Below, in pieces: positions 45,254 through 59,175 of a DNA stretch of 64,000 nucleotides. Origin of the DNA: Shigella phage KPS64; sequence record MK562502. One strand, given 5' to 3'. The notes beneath the pieces are model-generated. The model did not search any database. It saw only the letters and a program-made list of their open reading frames with translations, and was not told the DNA's origin. A program made the translations under genes and the position numbers. Within the stretch, counting starts at the first letter, position 1; the number at the start of each line of letters is the position of its first letter.

Positions 45254-45847
45254 ATGAGTGTACACATTAAAGAAAAGGGTGGAGTTGATTCTCCACAAGT
45301 TGCATTAGTCCAACACTACGGTAATGTTCAGGGTGTGCTTGCTGCGTTCCAGCCAAACATTAACTCACCAGCAAAAGTTGCCAAATTGACTATGGATGTG
45401 AACAATATCTCTGCATGTGTCATTGAAGATGTGCAGTACTTTAAGTTCTCATCTAAAGAAGTTGATGAAGCACTTCTGAAGTATCGTTTAGACCTTGAGA
45501 AAGACATTAACCACCAAGAGGTTGTGAAACTGTTTGGTGACCTACATGATATGCTTGATAAAGTCCACAAGCGTACATATTACATGAATGGTGGTTCAGT
45601 TATCACTACGTACACTTCCCCATTCACTAAAGAGGTCATCTTAACCGATGATGAGCAGTTCTTTGTTATGACTGCTTCAAGCTCAGATTGGTGGATGAAG
45701 AACACAGGAATGAAGACGATTATTGAAGCTATTCGTCAGCATATCCCAAACTTCAGCCCTTGGAAGGGTGCTTCTGATGACTTCATAGCTATCCTTGAAG
45801 ATGTTCGAAGCAGAAAAAGTAAATTACTGCCTAGAAAATATACTTGA
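45254..45847 (+). CDS. hypothetical protein (197 aa)
   Basis: ORF, no motif. Confidence 0.4.
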   Translation: MSVHIKEKGGVDSPQVALVQHYGNVQGVLAAFQPNINSPAKVAKLTMDVNNISACVIEDVQYFKFSSKEVDEALLKYRLDLEKDINHQEVVKLFGDLHDMLDKVHKRTYYMNGGSVITTYTSPFTKEVILTDDEQFFVMTASSSDWWMKNTGMKTIIEAIRQHIPNFSPWKGASDDFIAILEDVRSRKSKLLPRKYT

Positions 45848-50719: not shown

Positions 50720-50745
50720 GTAAAAAAGCCCCATCTAAGGGGCTG
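50720..50745 (-). terminator. rho-independent terminator ending the minus-strand small-gene array
   Basis: On minus strand agcccc-ttagat-ggggct hairpin followed by TTTTTT. Confidence 0.55.
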
Positions 50746-50785
50746 TAAAGGTGTCTGGGGCTATTTGCCCCGTTGCGGCGACTTG

Positions 50786-51037
50786 TTAGTTAATCACACC
50801 GAATTTTTGGTAGTAAAGCGTGATAAGAGAATCACCCCAATAGTAATAAGATACACCATCCTTTAAGACTTCCTGTTTAGTTTCTTTCCAGAATGTTTCC
50901 GATGGGTTATAGTCCTGAATAGTTGCTTTCAGACACATTTCAACCATACCGAAAGCATCACCAGTTCCAACCATATCAAATTTAACATCTAATACGTGGA
51001 AGCCAAAATTGTTAACAGTTGCGCGGATAGTAGCCAT
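50786..51037 (-). CDS. small protein (83 aa) of cassette-punctuated array
   Basis: ORF preceded by conserved hairpin plus CCTAAACTGGAGAATCT cassette. Confidence 0.45.
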   Translation of the reverse strand: MATIRATVNNFGFHVLDVKFDMVGTGDAFGMVEMCLKATIQDYNPSETFWKETKQEVLKDGVSYYYWGDSLITLYYQKFGVIN

Positions 51038-51103
51038 TTTCAGATTCTCCAGTTTAGGAATTTTGTTTTAGTGGGGAAGTCTCCCTCCCCGTTGAAAGTA
51101 ATA

Positions 51104-51367
51104 TTAATTCATTGCTGCATAAGTTGCAAGTCTTTTTTCATTGTATTTTGTAAGAATCTCACAAGATAAAACGTCATACTTTGCAACGGCTTCAGATTTA
51201 GTTAAACCAAAATGGCTTACAATTTCACCATTCATGAATCCGACTACTTCATAAGATTCTGCGATGATTTCACCGTTGAACCAATCACTTTCAATACGTT
51301 TGCAAAGTTGGATATCTTCTTTGTCAGTACCGATTTGTAACAGGATAGTGATTTCTTGATTATTCAT
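51104..51367 (-). CDS. small protein (87 aa) of array
   Basis: ORF preceded by cassette. Confidence 0.45.
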   Translation of the reverse strand: MNNQEITILLQIGTDKEDIQLCKRIESDWFNGEIIAESYEVVGFMNGEIVSHFGLTKSEAVAKYDVLSCEILTKYNEKRLATYAAMN

Positions 51368-51427
51368 TTTCTAGTCTCCAGTTTAGGATTGTTGGGGAAG
51401 GTCATTCCCTTCCCGTTGATAAGTACT

Positions 51428-51955
51428 TTACAGATTTATGATGATTTCGTCAAGGGAATTTTCTAAGTTTTTTAAAGATTGTTCGTAAAGCCTAATTCCC
51501 CTACTTAATGCTTCCCCTAACGTAATTTTAAAACTAGTTGTTGGGTAGTCACTTGTAAAGATGTTTTCCACTTCATAGAGTGGGTATTGTTGGTTACCCG
51601 TTCCCATAGCATACATGCCTGTATAGTGGATTGCAATAAAAAGATTATGGGACTTAATAGAGCGCTCATAAGCCATTTTAAAGCGGTTTAACTCGTTTTT
51701 AGTTGCCTTAATAGCCATTTCGTGAATTTCTGCGACTATAGCCATATAATCATTCAGAATAAGAGAAATAGCCCCCATAAAGTTGTTGGCTGTTACCGCT
51801 TTTACATTTGGTCGGTGTACATAAAACTTCTTATCTTCCCCTTTTGTGATAACCGCAAAAACTTTGCTCTTTAAGGTAAATTCCCAAGTATCTTTACAAG
51901 GCTTGCTCATCACTTCACGGCTACGGATTGCATTAACAGCATTAAACTTATTCAT
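51428..51955 (-). CDS. protein (175 aa) of array
   Basis: ORF preceded by cassette. Confidence 0.45.
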   Translation of the reverse strand: MNKFNAVNAIRSREVMSKPCKDTWEFTLKSKVFAVITKGEDKKFYVHRPNVKAVTANNFMGAISLILNDYMAIVAEIHEMAIKATKNELNRFKMAYERSIKSHNLFIAIHYTGMYAMGTGNQQYPLYEVENIFTSDYPTTSFKITLGEALSRGIRLYEQSLKNLENSLDEIIINL

Positions 51956-51958
51956 TCT

Positions 51959-52212
51959 AGATTCTCCAGTTTAGGAATTTTGTTTTAGTGGGGAAGTCTC
52001 CCTCCCCGTTGATGAATACTTTACTTGTTTTGATTCTGTATTGCAAGTAGTTTTTTATCAAAAAGTTTATCTGAGATTTCACCAAAGATTCTCCAGTTTA
52101 GGAATTTTGTTTTAGTGGGGAAGTCTCCCTCCCCGTTGATGAATACTTTACTTGTTTTGATTCTGTATTGCAAGTAGTTTTTTATCAAAAAGTTTATCTG
52201 AGATTTCACCAA
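51959..52212. repeat. 127-bp perfect tandem duplication (2 copies)
   Basis: 51959-52085 and 52086-52212 are identical: cassette plus 3' end of a small membrane-protein gene. Confidence 0.7.
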
Positions 52213-52280
52213 TGATGAGCATTGCTAATGGCAACACAACAGAAACAATCATACCGCAAAGGATAGGGTTTTTAATGATA
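52148..52280 (-). CDS. small membrane protein (46 aa), C-terminus ...LLAIQNQNK
   Basis: ATG at 52280 nine nt after GGAG; below the 60-aa track cutoff; paralogous C-terminus to gene 55326..55673. Confidence 0.35.
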
Positions 52281-52484
52281 TCTAACATTTAGTGATTCTC
52301 CAGTTTAGGAAGTTGCCTTTTGAAGATACTATATAGATATGATTAAACCTTTGCAAGTACTTTTTACGCTTATCTATAAAGAATCTATAAAGTTAATCCC
52401 TTTTAGATAAACCCCCTCGAACAAAGTTACACTTGTCAAGGGGCATTGTCAATAGTTTTTCAAAAGATTTTTATAAGTTGTTGA

Positions 52485-52826
52485 TTAGCTTATAAAGATT
52501 TTTTCTGGCTTAACATAGGTTAATGACTGTTTTTTAAGCAAATCAGACCAAATGAGCGCGGCAATGTGACTATATCCCTTTTCTCTTAACTCCTGCATAG
52601 CTGATTTGCGAGTTTCAAAACGTGTAGCATAGTATTCAGTGTTAAGGGTAGTTTTATTCCCTTCATTGTCAACATGTACAATCTGCATCACTTGAAAGGG
52701 GCTTACATCTTCTCCCCTGTTCCATTGCTCAAAGTACTTGAGACACTGCATAGGTTTCATTTTGTCGTTAACTTGGGTAGACCATGACGAATTTTCTTTA
52801 TCGGTGATAATTGTTACATAGGCCAT
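52485..52826 (-). CDS. protein (113 aa) of array
   Basis: ORF preceded by cassette. Confidence 0.45.
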   Translation of the reverse strand: MAYVTIITDKENSSWSTQVNDKMKPMQCLKYFEQWNRGEDVSPFQVMQIVHVDNEGNKTTLNTEYYATRFETRKSAMQELREKGYSHIAALIWSDLLKKQSLTYVKPEKIFIS

Positions 52827-52918
52827 TTTTAGATTCTCCAGTTTAGGATTGTTGGTAAAGCTCTTTATCTGGGGCTTATCTTATCTAATTATAAACCCCA
52901 TGTAAAGCACTTTATTAG

Positions 52919-53140
52919 TTATTTGTAGTAATAATATGTAAACTCATTTATCAGGCTTCCATCCTCATTATTATACTGCTTATGACTAGCCAGATAACCG
53001 CCATTAGCTAGAATTTCATCAATCAACTTTTTAGCGTCATCGTTGGGAATCCTAACAGGGTTATTAAATGGTTGTAAATAGGTACGACGAACATTTGAGA
53101 ATTTAAAATCAATGGTTTTTACGTTAAGAACTTGCAACAT
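52919..53140 (-). CDS. small protein (73 aa) of array
   Basis: ORF preceded by cassette. Confidence 0.4.
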   Translation of the reverse strand: MLQVLNVKTIDFKFSNVRRTYLQPFNNPVRIPNDDAKKLIDEILANGGYLASHKQYNNEDGSLINEFTYYYYK

Positions 53141-53225
53141 TTTTTGAATCTCCAGTTTAGGATTGTTGGGGCTTCTAACTTGCCCCGTTGATGAGTACTC
53201 TACTGGTTTGCGTTTTCAGTGTCAA

Positions 53226-53456
53226 CTACTTTTCTATAAGAATTTCATAATCACCATTCACACTATCAAAATAAATCCCGTATTCATCTTCTGATTTATA
53301 GTAACATTGGATATCATCTGATGCAGGGTAATCTTGTCTTGCTATCTGACAGGCAACAATAGCATTATTTTCGCTACCTGTAAACTCTTCTAAACCTTTA
53401 AAGTCACATTGTGAACCATTGCAGATAGATAGAATAAGATAGATTGTTGTAAGCAT
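53226..53456 (-). CDS. small Cys-containing protein (76 aa), putative signal peptide
   Basis: ORF; upstream has hairpin but no cassette. Confidence 0.4.
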   Translation of the reverse strand: MLTTIYLILSICNGSQCDFKGLEEFTGSENNAIVACQIARQDYPASDDIQCYYKSEDEYGIYFDSVNGDYEILIEK

Positions 53457-53519
53457 CTTTTAAGCCTCTTGTAAGCCCCTATGCGGGGCTTTTCTAGTGA
53501 ACTGGTATGATTCTATCGT

Positions 53520-54077
53520 TTATGCTGTCAAGTCGTTTATAGCCGTTTCTGTTACGTTACATTGCATTGTGTCAAAGATATCACAATATACATTGCTCAT
53601 CTCATCACTACGTTGGACTATTGCCGCAATGTTGCGTAATTCATCCGGTATATAACCCAAGTTCCTATTATTCAGGTTAGGGACAAAGAAAGGCGCATAC
53701 ATAGCATTAAATTCAGTTGTGTAAACCTTTTTAATCCATTCTTTATCGAAATACTCTGTAAAGCTTGCTACGTCGCTCATGTTCTCACAGCTCCAGTCAT
53801 CTTGTAATTCATCTTCTGGAATATCAAGTTCCAAGATAACAAGTTTTTGTGACTTCATTTGATAGGCTGCTGTAATGCTTGCACTGTCAAGCGCGTTTTT
53901 AATACCTTCATCTATGATTTGTTCGTCATCCAGATTTTCTACATCATAGAACTTGCTAACAGGGTAGACATAAAAACATCCATCCATATCAGAGCAATTC
54001 CAGACTCCTGATGGTTTATCACCGCCATTCATAAGGTTTACAAAGTTTTCTTGTGTAGTACCATGAAAGCATTTCAT
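53520..54077 (-). CDS. protein (185 aa) of array
   Basis: ORF preceded by cassette. Confidence 0.45.
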   Translation of the reverse strand: MKCFHGTTQENFVNLMNGGDKPSGVWNCSDMDGCFYVYPVSKFYDVENLDDEQIIDEGIKNALDSASITAAYQMKSQKLVILELDIPEDELQDDWSCENMSDVASFTEYFDKEWIKKVYTTEFNAMYAPFFVPNLNNRNLGYIPDELRNIAAIVQRSDEMSNVYCDIFDTMQCNVTETAINDLTA

Positions 54078-54161
54078 TTTAGATTCTCCAGTTTAGGATT
54101 GTTGGTAAAGCTCTTTATCTGGGGCTTATCTTATCTAATTATAAACCCCATGTAAAGCACT

Positions 54162-54410
54162 TTATTTAGTTTTCTTTGTAAAGATTAGTTTAACGGCAAC
54201 AGTTGGTAACTCTTCAATACTTGTGAACAAAGTCACTTTTTGAGTCTTGACATTATAGCCATACTTTGAACCATAAGCCGTAAAACGGTTTACAATGTAA
54301 CTGTAAGTTTTTGCAGTGTTATCTGGCATATGATATAAAAACGGCTTGCCAAGGTTATCAAGTTGTGTTAATAGTCGGCAGGTATCAGGGATATTCAACA
54401 TATTAAACAT
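54162..54410 (-). CDS. small protein (82 aa) of array
   Basis: ORF preceded by cassette. Confidence 0.45.
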   Translation of the reverse strand: MFNMLNIPDTCRLLTQLDNLGKPFLYHMPDNTAKTYSYIVNRFTAYGSKYGYNVKTQKVTLFTSIEELPTVAVKLIFTKKTK

Positions 54411-54495
54411 TTTCAGATTCTCCAGTTTAGGATTTTTGGGGCTTCTAACTTGCCCCGTTGGTGAGTACTCTACTACTATGCTTTTGCAATGTCAA

Positions 54496-54903
54496 TCAAA
54501 TCTCTGAATAAATCGCATCGCAGATTTCACGGAAAACTTCAACCGGTAAGTTACGCTGTAACCATGTTGCAAAGAAATCAGCAATTGCAAAGTTTGCATC
54601 AAAATCAACACATAGCCACACTTTAACAGCAAATCTAAACATTTTCAAGTCAAGTTCTTTATTCATTACTTTTGACTTTGACAGCATTTCCTTCATCTCA
54701 TATTGAGCACCGTCAATTATAGCCCCTGCTGCTACATCTTGCAATGATTCTTTAAGCTGTTTTGTGTCTACTACTACGCCCTGAATTTTACCGATGATAT
54801 TATGCAGTGTTTCGTCTGGCGCTGCTGATGTTACAATGTTGATGCGGTTAATGGTCAAACGTGCTTTCAAAATTGCAACTTCTTTGTGATTAACATTAGT
54901 CAT
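54496..54903 (-). CDS. protein (135 aa) of array
   Basis: ORF preceded by variant cassette. Confidence 0.45.
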   Translation of the reverse strand: MTNVNHKEVAILKARLTINRINIVTSAAPDETLHNIIGKIQGVVVDTKQLKESLQDVAAGAIIDGAQYEMKEMLSKSKVMNKELDLKMFRFAVKVWLCVDFDANFAIADFFATWLQRNLPVEVFREICDAIYSEI

Positions 54904-54993
54904 TTTTGATACTCCAGTTTAGGTTAGTTTTAGATAAATCTCTTTATCTGGGGCTTATCTTATCTAACTATAAACCCCATGTAAAGCAATTTA

Positions 54994-55266
54994 TTAGACT
55001 AAATACAATTTTTTACCGCTAACAATAATATAACTTACACCGCTATTACTATAAACATCTTGATAAATTCTGCGTAACTTTCCAAGGTATCGAACTTTCC
55101 AAGATGTAGGAATTTTCTTTCCATATCCTGTGGCGGTTTTTTGTAAACCTGCTACTTGCCAATCTAATAGGTGCTGTTCTGCTCTTAACTCTTCAAAGTT
55201 TAATACACCGTCTATATAGTGTTTTAAAGTTACGTTCAAAGTTCGACCGTCATTAGTAGTATACAT
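54994..55266 (-). CDS. small protein (90 aa) of array
   Basis: ORF preceded by cassette. Confidence 0.45.
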   Translation of the reverse strand: MYTTNDGRTLNVTLKHYIDGVLNFEELRAEQHLLDWQVAGLQKTATGYGKKIPTSWKVRYLGKLRRIYQDVYSNSGVSYIIVSGKKLYLV

Positions 55267-55325
55267 TTTCAGATTCTCCAGTTTAGGATTGTTGGGGCTT
55301 CTATCTTGCCCCGTTGATGAATACT

Positions 55326-55673
55326 TTACTTGTTTTGATTCTGCATTGCAAGCTCTTTTTTATTAATTTCTTGCGCTATCAAGATATAATAATCTTTCAG
55401 GTTTATATCTTGAATTGACTCAAGAAGTATGTCATAATCACTGATTAATTTAAAATCACCGTCTAGGATGTTATCAATCCGGTATGTTTCTGCTTTGAAT
55501 CGAAAGCTCATCTCTAAGCGTTTCAATTGTTCTAAGCTCAAACGCTCTAAAAAGCCCCGTACAAGATTTATTTTTAAATCCCTTGTAAGTGCCTTATTAG
55601 CTATACTGTGCGCTTGTAAGGCTTTATAGAGCGCCACAATAGAGATAAAAATTGCAACGTATGTGATTAACAT
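55326..55673 (-). CDS. small membrane protein (115 aa), C-terminus ...ELAMQNQNK
   Basis: N-terminal TM helix; start overlaps upstream stop (ATGTTAA). Confidence 0.45.
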   Translation of the reverse strand: MLITYVAIFISIVALYKALQAHSIANKALTRDLKINLVRGFLERLSLEQLKRLEMSFRFKAETYRIDNILDGDFKLISDYDILLESIQDINLKDYYILIAQEINKKELAMQNQNK

Positions 55674-55963
55674 TTGTTTTTACCTTTGTGGAATAGTTTA
55701 CCAGTGTGACTAATTTCATATGAATCAACCATATCTCTAGTGGTCTTAATCGATGACTTATTAGTGTTATCATAGATATCAACCTGAAGCAATGGTTTTT
55801 TGTATTCTTTACAAAAGTTCCATACACAAATTATTACTTCCTTTTTGTTAATCTTTCCATGATACCACTCTACGGCTTCAGATGTACGGCGCATAGATTC
55901 AATGAATTGAATATTACTTAATAGCTGGCTTAATTTAGTTCTAACGTTTGCGGCAATAAACAT
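55667..55963 (-). CDS. small protein (98 aa) of array
   Basis: ORF preceded by cassette. Confidence 0.45.
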   Translation of the reverse strand: MFIAANVRTKLSQLLSNIQFIESMRRTSEAVEWYHGKINKKEVIICVWNFCKEYKKPLLQVDIYDNTNKSSIKTTRDMVDSYEISHTGKLFHKGKNKC

Positions 55964-56047
55964 TTTAGATTCTCCAGTTTAGGATTGTTGGTAAAGCTCT
56001 TTATCTGGGGCTATCTTATCAACTTGATAACCCCATGTAAAGCACTT

Positions 56048-56560
56048 TTAGATATTAAAGATATTCATAACAGAATCTTTCAAGGCTTCTAAACGTTCCA
56101 TTACTTCAGATTCTCCATCGGAGTTCGACACTTCCTCTTCTAATCGTGAATCTAAATCTTCCCCGTCAAGATAACACCAATCGAAACCATAAGCAAGTGA
56201 AAAGCTATTTAATACCGTATTACCTTCTTTATCTTCTACCTTTGCAAATAGCACATAGCTGTTAGCTTCTAAATCTCTTTGTAATTCATCTTGTAAGCTC
56301 TTGTAAGCCTCTATAGATGGATTTTCGCGGCCTTGTTTAGCATAATCACTCATCAATTGTGAAAGGCTGTAATGCTGTGGAATTGCATATTTGTACCCGT
56401 TACGCTCTGGATTTTTAAGTTTGATTGTAACCCCGCCTTTGTGCTCATCTGTAAACTTCCAATTTTCCACACAATGGGATGCTTCACAAATATTAACAGC
56501 TTCATAGATGATAGTGAATTTTTCTTTTTGAACTTCAAAGGTAGCTTCAACGTATGACAT
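56048..56560 (-). CDS. protein (170 aa) of array
   Basis: ORF preceded by cassette. Confidence 0.45.
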   Translation of the reverse strand: MSYVEATFEVQKEKFTIIYEAVNICEASHCVENWKFTDEHKGGVTIKLKNPERNGYKYAIPQHYSLSQLMSDYAKQGRENPSIEAYKSLQDELQRDLEANSYVLFAKVEDKEGNTVLNSFSLAYGFDWCYLDGEDLDSRLEEEVSNSDGESEVMERLEALKDSVMNIFNI

Positions 56561-56652
56561 ATTAAGATTCTCCAGTTTAGGACTATTGGTTAGTAAAGCT
56601 CTTTATCTGGGGCTTATACTAGCAACTTATAAACCCCATGTAAAGCACTTTA

Positions 56653-56910
56653 TCAGATTAAATTGTCAGTTAATGATAAGTGCATTTTATAACCTTTCTT
56701 CGTGTAGACGTTAGTTCTACCGATTGCTTTTACACCTTTGAAAAGGTCATAGGAACTACGTTTTAAAGTAATTTCCTTATCACATTTTACGCCCCATCTT
56801 ACAGCAGATTCTTTTCCGTTGTCAACCACTTTACCATTTAATTTTTTAGCAGTTGCGCGAGCGTCATCACGAGACTTTGCAGATACAATGATGTTTTTGA
56901 TAGTAGCCAT
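56653..56910 (-). CDS. small basic protein (85 aa) of array
   Basis: ORF preceded by variant cassette. Confidence 0.45.
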   Translation of the reverse strand: MATIKNIIVSAKSRDDARATAKKLNGKVVDNGKESAVRWGVKCDKEITLKRSSYDLFKGVKAIGRTNVYTKKGYKMHLSLTDNLI

Positions 56911-57002
56911 TTTTGATACTCCAGTTTAGGTTATTGGTTTGGTAAAGCTCTTTATCTGGGGCTTATCTTATCTAATTATAAACCCCATGTAAAGGACTTT
57001 AT

Positions 57003-57383
57003 TTAGTTAATTTTGAAAACTGTAACGTAGCCGTCACTACCAATAGTTTGAGATACTCCAGCTTTCTCTACATCATACCCCATTTTATCAAGATGGTACA
57101 TTGCATCTTCATACCCATATTTACCGCCTTGATAGCGTCTTTTTTCGCATCGTATCACAGTTTTACCACGTCCTGCAATAGCATTTATGATAGCTTTTTC
57201 ACCGGATAATGTACCGTCAAGCATAGTAGCTTTGTAGTGGTTAATACGGTTACCATTAACATCATACTTAAAATTGTAAGCGTGAACAACAATTATTTTT
57301 CCTTTGAAGTTTTCTTTCATAGTTTCCTCTAAGATACTACGAAAGTTTTCTTTGTTGATAAATTTAGGCGCACGATATTTCAT
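57003..57383 (-). CDS. protein (126 aa) of array
   Basis: ORF preceded by cassette. Confidence 0.45.
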   Translation of the reverse strand: MKYRAPKFINKENFRSILEETMKENFKGKIIVVHAYNFKYDVNGNRINHYKATMLDGTLSGEKAIINAIAGRGKTVIRCEKRRYQGGKYGYEDAMYHLDKMGYDVEKAGVSQTIGSDGYVTVFKIN

Positions 57384-57467
57384 TTTAGATTCTCCAGTTT
57401 AGGATTGTTGGTAAAGCTCTTTATCTGGGGCTTAATATACTAGCTTTTAAACCCCATGTAAAGCACT

Positions 57468-57674
57468 TTAAACGTTATAATAATAAATTGCTGTATGCCT
57501 TGTAAACTGTCTTGTATGATTTGTCAAGTAACAATCTGACCTGATTGACGTATTAACATATTTATCAAAATCTTTTTCTGAGATACGTTGCCAAACATCA
57601 CAAATTAGCATATAGAAACGACGTTTATTTGTTTTGTTGTTGTCAACAATCATTAACTCACGTTGATATAACAT
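57468..57674 (-). CDS. small protein (68 aa), first gene of array
   Basis: ORF preceded by cassette and upstream promoter. Confidence 0.4.
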   Translation of the reverse strand: MLYQRELMIVDNNKTNKRRFYMLICDVWQRISEKDFDKYVNTSIRSDCYLTNHTRQFTRHTAIYYYNV

Positions 57675-57723
57675 TTTCAGATTCTCCAGTTTAGGATTGT
57701 TGGGATGTTTCCCGTTGATGCAA

Positions 57724-57752
57724 ATACTATAAGACTGGATTTATGAAGTCAA
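57724..57752 (-). promoter_or_regulatory. sigma70-like promoter for the small-gene array (TTGACT, 16-17 nt, TATAGT)
   Basis: Read on minus strand: attttgTTGACTtcataaatccagtctTATAGTat. Confidence 0.45.
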
Positions 57753-57925
57753 CAAAATTTTTAAAAATATTTTTGATGTTTCGTGAATAGAACGCACGTA
57801 TGCGGATACACTAAAACAGGAATCTAGTCAAGAATTATTTTTGAGTTCTCTACAAATTTTTATCTTGACTTTTGGGAGGAAGGGGAGTAAGAGGGGATGG
57901 TGGGGCTGGTTTCCTACAGCTACCT

Positions 57926-58118
57926 ACCTGCACAAACTGAAAATGAATTTTCCCTTTGGAGTCCAACTGCATCTGCACAGATTGAAAATGAAAAACCCCT
58001 TTGGAGTCTAAACCTGCACGTTTTGAAAATGAATTTTCCCTTTGGAGTCCAGCTAAAGAAATCTGTCCAGAGTTCTATGCAACTATACCTGCACAAATTT
58101 GAAATGAAAAAGCCCTCC
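57926..58118. repeat. about four tandem copies of a 40-42-bp unit (CCTGCACA..TGAAAATGAA..CCCTTTGGAGTC)
   Basis: Direct repeats read at 57926, 57968, 58012, 58087. Confidence 0.6.
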
Positions 58119-58178
58119 TTACCTGAGATTTAAAACTCAAACTTTGGAGGGCTTGTCTATGTCTATCTAGGTGACTTA

Positions 58179-58973
58179 TTAGTTACGTGCTTCAACATAG
58201 TTTACGTTTTCATGTGTGATATAATCTTCTGCAAACTCTTCTGTAGTCGCATTTATATATACACTTGCATCATCGCCAAACGTTACCGCTCTGTGGTGGT
58301 GGCCTTGTAACGGGTGGGTAACTTGAGCGTTACTTCGATTGTACTTCTCAACCGGAGGGTAACTGGTGTGTACCTTGCCATTACGCTTCACCTTGAGGGT
58401 AACTTTATCCTTGCCTACCACAGCAACACCATCAAAGTATTGAGGCTCACTGAAGTTCTCCCAACCAGTAACAGGGCTAGTCAACTGACTGTACATCTTA
58501 TCTTCATAGACATACATATATACGTCAACATCTTTCATGGTCTGGTTAATAATGGACAGCACAGCCATGCTATCAAGACCACCAATCCCTGCACCAATCA
58601 TCGGAAGTCCAACCTTCTTAAGTTGGTTAACTTTACAGTAGTTGTTAAGACGCTGTAAAGCTGCTTCTAAGGCGTTGTATCGTGCATCTTTGCCAGTGAT
58701 AACCTGAGTGTAAAGGTTAGCAATTCGACCCTGCTTCAAACGTGCTACAGAGATGTTACCAAGCATTAGATGCTTAGGGTTATGGTTTTCACCACCTACT
58801 GTAGCATAAACTTCAGCGTCAGTTTCATAAGCTTTTGGGTAGCGTTTAGCAATTGTTGCTGCGATACCTGCACCCATCAAGTTCATGCAGTTACAACCGT
58901 GACCAATGATATCAAACTTCTTACCATCAAAGTCTTTAAAGATATCACCTTTAATAATTTTTACGATACCCAT
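58179..58973 (-). CDS. macro-domain protein (ADP-ribose binding/processing) with C-terminal extension (264 aa)
   Basis: IIKGDIFKDFDG...IIGHGCNCMNLMGAGIAATIAKRYP and VGLPMIGAGIGGLD macro-domain motifs; start set to ATG at 58973 after GGGAG. Confidence 0.55.
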   Translation of the reverse strand: MGIVKIIKGDIFKDFDGKKFDIIGHGCNCMNLMGAGIAATIAKRYPKAYETDAEVYATVGGENHNPKHLMLGNISVARLKQGRIANLYTQVITGKDARYNALEAALQRLNNYCKVNQLKKVGLPMIGAGIGGLDSMAVLSIINQTMKDVDVYMYVYEDKMYSQLTSPVTGWENFSEPQYFDGVAVVGKDKVTLKVKRNGKVHTSYPPVEKYNRSNAQVTHPLQGHHHRAVTFGDDASVYINATTEEFAEDYITHENVNYVEARN

Positions 58974-58974
58974 A

Positions 58975-59175
58975 TTAGTAATGCTCCCAACGTTCGTTAT
59001 CTTCAGATGGTTTAACTCGGTTACCTTCATGGTCTACCCATAAAGCACCGCAACCTTCACAGATTACTGGCATTGCTGAACCAGCTTCAAATTCTGCCTT
59101 TGTAAAGAGACCTTTTAAGTCTCCTGTATCTTTTCCAAACATCTCAACAGAACACTTAGTGCAGAAATCAGCCAT
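58975..59175 (-). CDS. small zinc-ribbon protein (66 aa)
   Basis: CTKCS ... CEGCG cysteine pairs; stop 1 nt before macro-domain start. Confidence 0.4.
   Translation of the reverse strand: MADFCTKCSVEMFGKDTGDLKGLFTKAEFEAGSAMPVICEGCGALWVDHEGNRVKPSEDNERWEHY

Follow-up and report, generated by a model that had tools for sequence, protein, structure and literature searches.

Promoter, hairpin and leader cassettes repeated through a small-gene array of Shigella phage KPS64 resemble the PeSL cassettes of T4-like phages

In the 64,000-nucleotide stretch of the Shigella phage KPS64 genome (MK562502) analysed here, hereafter the window, 17 ORFs of 46-185 aa follow one another on the minus strand between 50786 and 57674. 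All 17 have full-length matches to PHROG families and are therefore real conserved phage genes. A sequence-only reading of the window had placed the array between a promoter and a terminator, and both were found, at 57752-57724 and 50744-50727, respectively. The genes and flanking elements are as follows.

58107..58152, minus: end of the upstream transcription unit, a terminator-like hairpin and T-run (GCCCTCC...GGAGGGC TTTTT) with Felix O1 t13 as its homologue
57468..57674, minus: orf1, 68 aa, phrog_5293
57003..57383, minus: orf2, 126 aa, phrog_4495
56653..56910, minus: orf3, 85 aa, phrog_5089
56048..56560, minus: orf4, 170 aa, phrog_4190, homologue of Felix O1 ORF16
55667..55963, minus: orf5, 98 aa, phrog_4401
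55326..55673, minus: orf6, 115 aa, phrog_4375, no cassette
54994..55266, minus: orf7, 90 aa, phrog_3436
54496..54903, minus: orf8, 135 aa, phrog_4327
54162..54410, minus: orf9, 82 aa, phrog_9030, missing in Moogle and Felix O1
53520..54077, minus: orf10, 185 aa, phrog_3303
53226..53456, minus: orf11, 76 aa, phrog_4640, no cassette
52919..53140, minus: orf12, 73 aa, phrog_10118, missing in Moogle, Silverhawkium and Felix O1
52485..52826, minus: orf13, 113 aa, phrog_4318
52148..52288, minus: orf14, 46 aa, phrog_7482, predicted membrane peptide (likewise in the Sf19 annotation)
51428..51955, minus: orf15, 175 aa, phrog_4725
51104..51367, minus: orf16, 87 aa, phrog_7022
50786..51037, minus: orf17, 83 aa, phrog_4559
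50757..50778, minus: remnant hairpin CAACGGGGCAAATAGCCCCAGA beyond the last gene
50727..50744, minus: intrinsic terminator AGCCCCTTAGATGGGGCT plus T-run, closing the array and corresponding to Felix O1 t23

The hairpin remnant resembles class B on its 5' side and class A on its 3' side (classes defined below), lacks promoter and core, and is conserved in Felix O1 as well. The start of orf6 overlaps the end of orf5 and its N-terminus holds a hydrophobic segment, while orf11 has its own GAGG ribosome-binding site behind a CCCC...GGGG hairpin. The C-terminal residues of orf6 (LAMQNQNK) and orf14 (LAIQNQNK) are encoded by the promoter of the next cassette; the 3' end of orf6 contains both the -35 and the -10 of the orf7 cassette, and this -10 begins with the orf6 stop codon. 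The suggestion that host-takeover or anti-defence genes cluster here holds in part: orf10, with invariant residues H5, Y36 and E83, is predicted to adopt an ADP-ribosyltransferase fold, and its homologue Bas63 gp107 was reported to be conditionally essential on one host (PMC11482910), whereas the other 16 proteins offered no such function.

Scanning the whole window revealed 16 exact copies (0 mismatches) of the 12-mer CCTAAACTGGAG, all on the minus strand between 51047 and 57695, compared to 0.25 copies expected by chance, and none of the shuffles reached 16. With up to three mismatches allowed, the window outside the array yielded only chance-level extra matches. The 12-mer lies directly upstream of 15 of the 17 ORFs, the remaining copy belonging to an empty tandem cassette; the repeated cassette ahead of the small genes, as first proposed, is confirmed. 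Only these 12 nt are strictly invariant, the flanks (AACAAT upstream, AATCTAAA downstream) being variable, and 8-11 A-rich nt separate them from the ATG. The Shine-Dalgarno sequence of the array is CTGGAG in 16 of 16 cases, whereas other genes mostly use AAGG or GAGG. Upstream of it stands CCTAAAC, which is invariant in the cassettes and has no complementarity to 16S rRNA, and the CC...GG mini-hairpin in the leader has just 2-3 bp. The cassettes are limited to this single array, their parts being absent from the rest of the window and from ~75 kb of the remaining Mordin genome. Among the relatives compared, core variants are homogenised within each genome.

Every cassette also contains a sigma70-type promoter, contrary to the sequence-only reading, which had wrongly denied a -35 and -10: a consensus scan detected TTTACA/TTGACA-N17 hexamer pairs, and TTTACA- or TTGnnn-N17-TAnnnT occurs in each copy, the promoter sitting at a fixed distance from the hairpin. 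Instead of the single hairpin with a variable loop envisaged before, there are two unrelated hairpin classes. In class A (n=7), TTTACA-N17-TAnnnT lies within a bipartite hairpin of ~20 bp; in class B (n=8), TTGnnn-N17-TAnnnT-N5-TCAAC precedes a GC hairpin ~3 nt from the predicted transcript start; and class D (n=1) has promoter and core without a hairpin. The earlier tally of 15 genes with a hairpin and ribosome-binding site stands for the core, but hairpin and core together precede 14 genes, because the orf14 core has no hairpin. The cassettes are listed by the gene that they precede.

57675..57752, minus: orf1, class B cassette 1, array head; -35 TTGACT 57747-57752, -10 57724-57729, 5' hairpin 57702-57713, core 57684-57695, predicted transcript start ~57716-57717
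57384..57469, minus: orf2, class A; -35 TTTACA 57457-57462, -10 TATATT 57434-57439, bipartite hairpin 57413-57469, core 57392-57403
56911..57000, minus: orf3, class A; -35 56988-56993, -10 TAAGAT 56965-56970, hairpin 56944-57000, core 56919-56930
56561..56651, minus: orf4, class A; -35 56639-56644, -10 TAGTAT 56616-56621, hairpin 56595-56651, core 56570-56581
55964..56048, minus: orf5, class A, 56-nt hairpin subtype; -35 56036-56041, -10 TAAGAT 56013-56018, hairpin 55993-56048, core 55972-55983
55267..55351, minus: orf7, class B; -35 TTGCAA 55346-55351, -10 TAAAGT 55323-55328, hairpin 55294-55312, core 55276-55287
54904..54992, minus: orf8, class A; -35 54980-54985, -10 54957-54962, hairpin 54936-54992, core 54912-54923
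54411..54495, minus: orf9, class B; -35 TTGACA 54490-54495, -10 TAGAGT 54467-54472, hairpin 54438-54456, core 54420-54431
54078..54163, minus: orf10, class A; -35 54151-54156, -10 54128-54133, hairpin 54107-54163, core 54086-54097, predicted transcript start ~54120-54121
53141..53225, minus: orf12, class B; -35 TTGACA 53220-53225, -10 TAGAGT 53197-53202, hairpin 53168-53186, core 53150-53161
52827..52913, minus: orf13, class A; -35 52901-52906, -10 52878-52883, hairpin 52857-52913, core 52836-52847
52289..52356, minus: orf14, class D, no hairpin; TTGCAA-N17-TATAGT (52351-52356 / 52328-52333), core 52298-52309
52091..52173, minus: empty class B, no gene behind; upstream copy of a 127-bp x 2.0 tandem duplication (51959-52216, 99% identical)
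51956..52046, minus: orf15, class B; -35 TTGCAA 52041-52046, -10 TAAAGT 52018-52023, hairpin 51990-52007, core 51964-51975
51368..51453, minus: orf16, class B; -35 TTGACG 51448-51453, -10 TAAAGT 51425-51430, hairpin 51394-51414, core 51376-51387
51038..51129, minus: orf17, class B; -35 TTGCAA 51124-51129, -10 TAATAT 51101-51106, hairpin 51073-51090, core 51047-51058

The promoters are conserved in related phages. All 41 class A cassettes from 7 genomes retain TTTACA, the 17-nt spacer and TAnnnT, with variable spacer and loop sequence, and class B, with 68 unique cassettes among 83, invariably retains TTGnnn-N17-TAnnnT exactly 5 nt before (T)CAAC-GGG. Hexamers and exact 17-nt spacing are thus kept in 109/109 unique or sampled cassettes while adjacent bases drift, and they are fixed across at least seven related genomes (Mooglevirus, Suspvirus, Felixounavirus), with a diverged form in Erwinia Kolesnikvirus.

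Class A hairpins have folding energies of -25 to -27 kcal/mol (z -3.7 to -5); RNA starting at the embedded promoter is unstructured (z +0.6), and the hairpin can form in read-through RNA only. For the 53 unique hairpins of class A, pairing holds in 94.2% of cells, compared to 34-59% with the partners slid, and four pairs show double compensatory changes. Such changes include GC to UA and UA to AU; GGGG/CCCC is replaced by GGTG/CACC in Erwinia phage phiEa104, and the outer stem of the orf8 cassette is the compensatory variant AAATTGC/GAGATTT. U.G wobbles are confined to the sense strand. The covariation score was 0.205 versus 0.079 in shuffles (0/500 reaching 0.205), a statistic that overstates significance because the rows are recombining paralogues and not independent; stronger evidence comes from the slid-partner control and from wobbles being limited to the sense strand. 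For class B, the fold leaves 3-4 nt unpaired at the 5' end in 48/48 unique segments (mean dG -11.9, mean z -5). Comparison of the aligned sequences shows that the hairpins are maintained through compensatory change on the sense strand.

Related phages differ by whole modules, one gene plus one cassette having been gained or lost each time. In all informative cases of the module table but one, the remaining gene takes the cassette class of the missing neighbour (for loss, modules i, k, m and b; for insertion, j and o); Felix O1 alone departs from this, its crossover lying in a shared -35 box. The identity switch between genomes maps within CAACAATCCTAAACTGGAGAATCT, a BLAST breakpoint with Sf19 falls at ~52827, by the orf13 cassette, and empty or fused cassettes are seen in the window, Mordin and L018. 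As judged from these alignments, related phages gained and lost genes via recombination inside cassettes, and the breakpoints show the crossovers to lie within the shared core, save for the one Felix O1 case.

The PeSL (promoter-early stem-loop) cassettes of T4-like phages consist of a sigma70 promoter, a GGGG...CCCC stem-loop and a Shine-Dalgarno sequence with ATG ahead of small ORFans, the stem-loops containing G-T pairs and occupying several positions relative to the promoter (PMC2839356). The KPS64 cassettes match them in every sequence-level feature tested, and we consider it probable that this early-gene array of a Felix O1-like myovirus is their Ounavirinae counterpart, nearly every gene having a self-contained cassette of its own. 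Each cassette would combine a promoter for host sigma70 with a GC-rich hairpin in the RNA (GGGG...CCCC) and a standard leader, and host RNA polymerase would initiate at ~16 same-direction promoters straight after infection. The functions of the hairpins we infer as follows. Class B transcripts would start ~3 nt ahead of the hairpin, which would therefore be a stem-loop at the 5' terminus, a type of structure that shields mRNA from 5'-end-dependent decay. In the ~20-bp bipartite hairpin of class A, the 5' arm would hold the -35, and the -10 would span the apical loop and 3' arm, so that the promoter's own RNA would lack the hairpin while read-through RNA from upstream would form it and present either a T7-like RNase III substrate or a 3'-stabiliser/insulator between cistrons. 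The class A start is predicted at the A of CCCC-AGA, with which the 3' internal loop begins, so the mature 5' ends from initiation and from processing would almost coincide. The invariant leader would standardise translation, and its DNA may provide the ~25-30 bp of homology that allows genes to be swapped in and out. An RT-PCR study of Felix O1 places ORFs 16, 20, 21 and 22 in the earliest group and ORFs 14, 17, 19 and 23 in a later one, in a noisy table (PMC3185647), and this mixed timing of array genes counts against an early-array explanation. In the literature we found no report of a measured transcription start, processing site, promoter activity or RNA half-life for the cassettes.

It is also conceivable, albeit unlikely, that the hairpins are mainly terminators or attenuators isolating genes expressed from their own promoters, with no role in RNA stability or processing. 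They are stable and GC-rich, and the PeSL211/210 stem-loop of RB49 reduced downstream lacZ expression (PMC2839356). However, neither class is followed by a U-run, the stems being trailed by ACCAACAAUCC or ACUAAAACAAAAUUCC instead, so the terminator function of the RB49 element cannot be assumed here; canonical terminators are located at the array ends only, and in class B the promoter precedes its hairpin, so an efficient terminator there would kill the cassette's own transcript. We regard as quite improbable a reading in which the RNA fold is incidental and a dimeric phage regulator uses the class A inverted repeats as its DNA operator to switch early promoters off. The repeats do flank the -35 and start site, relatives encode a candidate Cro/C1-type HTH regulator, Mordin_49, and temporal control is described as unknown for Felix O1 (PMC3185647), but pairing rather than sequence is kept in the substitutions above, wobbles restricted to the sense strand are meaningless for a double-stranded operator, and the palindrome is absent from class B and class D promoters.

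There is very little to be said for a phage-RNA-polymerase promoter, or for a mere RNA-processing site with all transcription from the ~57750 promoter, even though a conserved hairpin plus sequence recalls N4 or T7-type phage promoters and the class A hairpin resembles an RNase III substrate. The polymerase option of the sequence-only reading is unsupported because Felix O1 is reported to encode no RNA polymerase (PMC3185647) and the elements, throughout the 109 cassettes, fit the host sigma70 consensus. Its other two proposals fared better: a conserved translation-initiation module is part of the answer, in the form of the invariant leader, and the class A hairpin could still be an RNA-processing site. 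Reading the repeats as a selfish miniature mobile element that spread from gene to gene without regulatory role, as many near-identical and sometimes empty or fused copies might suggest, is scarcely credible given that every copy has the same orientation, ends 8-11 nt ahead of a start codon and stays within one array, that promoter and Shine-Dalgarno consensus positions are kept across genera, and that transposase, terminal repeats and target duplications are all absent.

For Felix O1, these elements had so far appeared only as uninterpreted "direct repeats". The cassette design, already known in T4-like phages, is new for the Felix O1-like group.

The early array of the window phage, a Felix O1-like myovirus of the subfamily Ounavirinae, is laid out as follows:

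58107-58152: terminator-like hairpin, upstream limit of the array
57674 (orf1) to 50786 (orf17), minus strand: 17 small ORFs of 46-185 aa
57695-51047, minus strand: range of the 12-nt leader core CCTAAACTGGAG
50727-50744: intrinsic terminator, downstream limit of the array

One array protein is 100% identical to gp116 of Shigella phage KPS64. All 17 proteins gave full-length matches to PHROG families, which have no assigned function; Pfam scans of all 17 returned nothing significant, and neither did searching PDB chains with the orf4, orf10 and orf15 sequences. The core, which contains a GGAG Shine-Dalgarno (SD) sequence, occurs in 16 exact copies, confined to the minus strand and to the range listed, where 0.25 would be expected by chance. 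In 15 of the 16 it lies 8-11 nt 5' of a start codon (core GGAG to ATG), and the remaining copy is part of a 127-bp tandem duplication (51959-52216). The repeated cassette that the sequence-only reading had placed ahead of the small early genes is borne out by these counts. Searches for the core and for the class A and class B motifs defined below found none outside the array, either in the 64-kb window or in the ~75 kb remaining of the genome of Citrobacter phage Mordin.

Alignment of the 110 nt 5' of each core revealed two unrelated upstream halves, and a single cassette of a third kind:

Class A (7 copies): AAAGTGC-TTTACA-TGGGGTTTAT...-TAAGAT-AAGCCCC-AGA-TAAAGAGCTTT-ACCAACAAT-core
Class B (8 copies): TTGACA/TTGCAA-N17-TAAAGT/TAGAGT-N5-TCAAC-GGGG...CCCC-AACAAT-core
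Class D (orf14, 1 copy): TTGCAA-N17-TATAGT plus core, with no hairpin

Because hexamer pairs are present in all three kinds of cassette and were also flagged by an independent promoter consensus scan, the earlier statement that the cassette has no sigma70 -35/-10 is wrong. We compared the homologous arrays of Mordin, Sf19, phiSUSP1, Silverhawkium, Moogle and Felix O1, with extra Felixounavirus contigs from IMG/VR for the cassette comparison. All 41 class A cassettes carry an invariant TTTACA, a 17-nt spacer and a TAnnnT -10 box (TAAGAT in 27, TAGTAT in 5, TATCTT in 4, others in 5), and their spacer and loop letters drift between relatives while the hexamers stay. The 68 unique class B cassettes (83 copies) read TTGnnn-N17-TAnnnT without exception, with exactly 5 nt from the -10 box to (T)CAAC-GGG. 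A pattern in which only the bases read by sigma70 are retained, with their spacing fixed, is at the level of sequence the hallmark of working promoters. The upstream gene has its stop codon at the base of the stem in class A and within the promoter in class B.

A phage-polymerase promoter is rejected on the strength of these conserved hexamers and of the statement in the Felix O1 genome paper that this phage has no RNA polymerase of its own (Whichard et al. 2010; PMC3185647). The same paper lists the cassette halves merely as 57-bp and 39-bp "direct repeats", recognizes them neither as promoters nor as hairpins or recombination sites, omits the cassettes from its own promoter list, places few promoters in the early region and calls temporal regulation unknown (PMC3185647). 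By our comparison, the 57-bp repeat (CTTTACATGGGG...GAGCTTTACCACT) corresponds to class A and the 39-bp repeat (TTGACA...CATCAAC) to the class B promoter; in the Mordin record the core is annotated as a 14-bp repeat_region. The literature was searched for mapped transcription starts and RNA-seq of Felix O1-like phages; no transcript-mapping study was found, nor any reporter measurement of promoter or attenuator activity for the cassettes.

Two further elements may touch on early regulation. Mordin_49 (45397-45696 of the Mordin locus L127; 60096-60395 of the record), located among replication genes, is a Cro/C1-type HTH "transcriptional regulatory protein", and proteins of this type are candidate regulators of the early promoters. 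In the ~500 bp without coding sequence that separate the first early promoter from the terminator upstream of it, window positions 57926-58129 hold four direct repeats of ~43 nt (ACCTGCACnnnnTGAAAATGAAtttTCCCTTTGGAGTC on the plus strand; 60-100% identical, 41-75 nt apart), followed by a C-rich tract (~57850-57905) and conserved in Felix O1; iterons, regulator-binding sites and a series of weak terminators are all candidate identities.

The class A hairpin is intercistronic and comprises an outer stem (10/11 pairs), a 3x3 internal loop, a 9-bp inner stem and an apical loop of 10-11 nt (-25 to -27 kcal/mol, z -3.7 to -5). With ~20 pairs in total, conserved by covariation, it has the structure of an RNase III site of the T7 early type; RNA begun at the embedded promoter is predicted to be unstructured (z +0.6). 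Among 53 distinct class A hairpins, 94.2% of cells form standard pairs, compared to 34-59% after the 3' partners have been shifted by 1-3 columns, and four pairs show two-sided changes (GC/UA at 4-54, UA/AU at 21-37, AU/UA at 22-36 and UA/AU/CG/UG at 23-35). The covariation score of this set is 0.205 compared to 0.079 for shuffled alignments, with none of 500 shuffles scoring as high, although such statistics are generous because the cassettes recombine as paralogues. At 5-53 and 19-39, U.G pairs are frequent; read from the opposite strand they would turn into A.C mismatches, which argues for sense-strand RNA and against a DNA cruciform or a protein operator, alternatives also disfavored by changes that preserve pairing. 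These substitution patterns lead us to conclude that selection acts on the hairpins as sense-strand RNA.

In class B, all 48 distinct leaders are predicted to form a GC hairpin of 4-8 bp (mean dG -11.9, mean z -5), built from several different stem sequences and preceded by 3-4 unpaired nt when the start site is deduced from the -10 position. Hairpin placement therefore differs between the classes, class A enclosing the spacer and -10 box and class B following the start site, and one Silverhawkium copy has its hairpin between -35 and -10. A known RNA family is rejected, as an Rfam 15 scan at E<=1 gave only three sub-threshold chance matches, to eukaryotic snoRNA and miRNA models.

Two other hairpins were noted on the minus strand. 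The one at 50757-50778 (CAACGGGGCAAATAGCCCCAGA), 3' of the last array gene and just ahead of the true terminator, resembles class B on its 5' side and class A on its 3' side, has neither promoter nor core, is conserved in Felix O1, and may be a decayed cassette or a 3'-end stabilizer. The orf10/orf11 gap (53470-53495) contains a GC hairpin of opposite polarity, GCCCC-GCATA-GGGGC, with no T-run; since orf11 follows this hairpin and has its own GAGG rather than the cassette as ribosome-binding site, orf10 and orf11 behave as a two-gene module.

The leader core was considered in terms of pairing. Its longest complementarity to E. coli 16S rRNA is 6-7 nt for the main core and the Erwinia leaders, and 9 nt for the Felix leader when G.U is allowed, in each case no better than for shuffled sequences, and a role as rRNA-pairing enhancer is rejected on this ground. 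A mini-hairpin, UCC-UAAACU-GGA, is enriched in the array (10/13 vs 3/55), and its CC...GG form is kept in all three core variants, including that of Felix (CCU...AGG), and in the Erwinia version; it amounts to merely 2-3 bp and some copies have lost the closing U-A pair, so that we did not adopt it as an SD-sequestering device. The segment CCTAAAC, 5' of the SD, is invariant. No antisense copy of the core able to pair with the leaders was found elsewhere in the window.

Next to the promoters and hairpins stands a third property of the cassettes, their association with gene gain and loss. Across seven genomes gene order is collinear, with single genes gained or lost, and where a gene is absent the next gene carries the cassette class of its missing neighbor, as listed here.

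Cassette class carried by array genes whose upstream neighbor is absent
orf2: class B in Silverhawkium, where orf1 is absent
orf10: class B in Moogle, where orf9 is absent
orf13: class B in Moogle, Silverhawkium and Felix O1, where orf12 is absent
orf15: class D in SUSP1 and Moogle, where orf14 is absent

Additional genes are accompanied by the opposite shift (genes q/j of Mordin and r/o of Silverhawkium). Such shifts are what would be produced by crossovers in the leader core, the only segment common to A, B and D cassettes. Resolved to single bases, the junctions in Moogle show identity passing from one window cassette to the next within CAACAATCCTAAACTGGAGAATCT; the exception is Felix O1, where orf14 was lost via a shared CTTGCAA -35 box. 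The nearest relatives of the window phage are Shigella phages Sf19, Sf13 and ESh20 (~96-97% identity across window 52827-57800), and a BLAST breakpoint with Sf19, at ~52827, coincides with a cassette. Recombination footprints comprise an empty tandem cassette in the window, a fused double class A cassette in Mordin and two cassettes joined directly in a further related locus (L018). Core variants are homogenized within genomes, CCTTAAACTAGGAG being present in 8/8 cassettes of the related locus L033 and CCTAAACTGGAG in all Moogle- and Susp-type copies. Judged from these junctions and class shifts, the cassettes are the joints for gene exchange.

The tandem duplication at 51959-52216 (127 bp, 2.0 copies, 99% identity) repeats the 3' end of orf14 and a complete class B cassette; it is not found in Sf19, Mordin or SUSP1, and its junction displays a short GAATCT / GAAATCT similarity. 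Class B promoters extend into upstream coding sequence, which explains why orf6 and orf14, otherwise unrelated, share the C-terminus LA(M/I)QNQNK. Both encode small membrane-type proteins that end in the class B promoter segment CTTGCAAT.CAGAATCAAAACAAGTAAAGT (minus strand, 55326-55351 for orf6 and 52148-52173 for orf14), the stop codon forming the first three bases of the -10 box.

The architecture extends to more distant phages. Erwinia phage phiEa104 (Kolesnikvirus; FQ482083.1, 8263-18811) has a homologous array with an orf10 homologue of ~32% identity and cassettes that have diverged and are still recognizable: class A has GGTG/CACC in place of the otherwise invariant GGGG/CCCC, class B-like copies carry the hairpin 5' of ATCAAC instead of 3', and the leader core is CCTTAnAnAGGAAT, with AGGA as SD. 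In Pseudomonas phage PAK_P1 (KC862297.1, 58123-66626) the orf10 homologue lies amid small genes, each with a TTGACA-N17-TAGAAT promoter and several of these with GC-rich inverted repeats inside or right after it; there is no shared invariant leader, and we regard this array as a looser version of the cassette architecture. The orf10 product itself is predicted to adopt an ADP-ribosyltransferase (ART) beta-sandwich fold with a conserved triad of the H/R - Y/S - E type. Directly upstream of the array, a 283-aa ORF (58179-59030, minus strand) is the counterpart of macro-domain (ADP-ribose-binding) proteins annotated in Sf19 (gp119), Mordin (127), Moogle (116) and Silverhawkium (gp125), and its position adjoining an array with an ART-fold protein suggests an ADP-ribosylation writer/eraser pair.

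The closest known counterparts are the promoter-early stem-loops (PeSLs) of the T4-like phages RB49/phi1, T4/PST and KVP40/nt-1, which are defined by a sigma70-like promoter with an AT-rich upstream region in which the preceding gene ends, a stem-loop (GGGG...CCCC, with G-T pairs) whose placement falls into five subclasses, and then an SD and start codon (Arbiol et al. 2010, PMC2839356; Comeau et al. 2014, PMC4122927). PeSLs lie among ORFans, where they bound indels, with crossovers between the -10 box and the ATG (PMC2839356; PMC4122927). The cassettes described here share the sigma70-like -35/-10 boxes with consensus spacing, the stable GGGG...CCCC stem-loop with G-T pairs (over the -10 box, between the boxes or after -10), the start at or near an AT-rich upstream stop codon, the end in an SD and downstream ATG, the concentration among small ORFans of a plastic early region and the cassette-bounded indels between relatives (module table of seven genomes, base-level junctions and BLAST breakpoint). 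They differ in lineage, Ounavirinae instead of Straboviridae / T4-like, and in three properties: a leader core invariant across genera, a class A outer stem that places the entire promoter inside a ~20-bp bipartite hairpin, and hairpins with no U-tract. As a U-tract is absent after both hairpin classes, terminator activity, demonstrated for one RB49 PeSL (PMC2839356), cannot be assumed. The experimental hallmarks of PeSLs are promoter and terminator/attenuator activity in reporter fusions and mini-circles excised when cassettes recombine; the tandem and empty cassettes seen here would be at most indirect footprints of the latter. Every sequence-level feature of PeSLs is present in the cassettes, and since the comparison is one of architecture and the host phage belongs to the Ounavirinae, we class them as an analogue of the PeSL kind, not a homologue. 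A literature search on the term PeSL returned nothing concerning Felix O1-like phages.

Three other systems offer partial parallels. The T7 early RNase III sites (R0.3-R1.3) are intercistronic hairpins of about two helical turns with an internal loop, in a transcript made by the host polymerase; the cut falls on the loop's 3' side, so that the upstream mRNA keeps a protective hairpin at its 3' end. Class A is a similarly interrupted intercistronic hairpin, but the T7 sites have no promoters, and cleavage of class A is proposed by analogy. Stabilizing 5'-terminal stem-loops such as that of the ompA leader, reportedly described by Emory, Bouvet and Belasco in 1992, place a stable hairpin ~2-4 nt from the mRNA 5' end, which is the geometry predicted for class B. 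Finally, GGAG Shine-Dalgarno sequences of T4 early mRNAs are cut by the RegB endoribonuclease, and the array resembles this set, purely by analogy, in that its SD is CTGGAG in 16/16 uses, AAGG or GAGG being the usual choice of the window's other genes.

From the composition, conservation and covariation of the cassettes, their confinement to a single array and the module exchange, we infer the following scheme. Some 16 co-directional promoters of host type would fire early. Class B transcripts would bear a protective 5'-terminal hairpin, and the class A hairpin would form only in read-through RNA, serving as an RNase III-like site of the T7 type or as a 3' stabilizer or insulator. The 3' internal loop of class A opens with the A of CCCC-AGA (e.g. 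~54120), the predicted start, and for that reason mRNA begun at the promoter and mRNA cut from read-through RNA would share one 5' end and leader. A bolder reading, which we consider rather unlikely, takes the cassette beyond a promoter and ribosome-binding site: it would mature mRNA by two routes and allow the array to be controlled as a whole. On this reading the core, which is present at all cassette-bearing array genes and at no other gene, is invariant across genera and is not explained by 16S pairing, could be recognized by a phage or host RNA-binding repressor or nuclease that switches off the entire array in the manner of RegA/RegB. If true, and combined with core-mediated exchange, this would turn the array into an integron-like platform for capturing and expressing genes without an integrase.

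With these results a transcription map, hitherto missing, can be predicted for the early genes of Felix O1-type phages, a group in wide use for typing, biocontrol and therapy of Salmonella, E. coli and Shigella. The analysis indicates that the PeSL design, in which promoter, hairpin and ribosome-binding site form a portable unit doubling as a recombination linker, is not peculiar to T4-like phages. It also yields a testable rule for the exchange of accessory early genes, one gene with one cassette and a crossover in the 25-30-bp leader; the genes so exchanged are likely to act in host takeover or anti-defense, the predicted ADP-ribosyltransferase among them, and for phage engineering the cassettes may offer ready-made insertion points with an insulated expression context.
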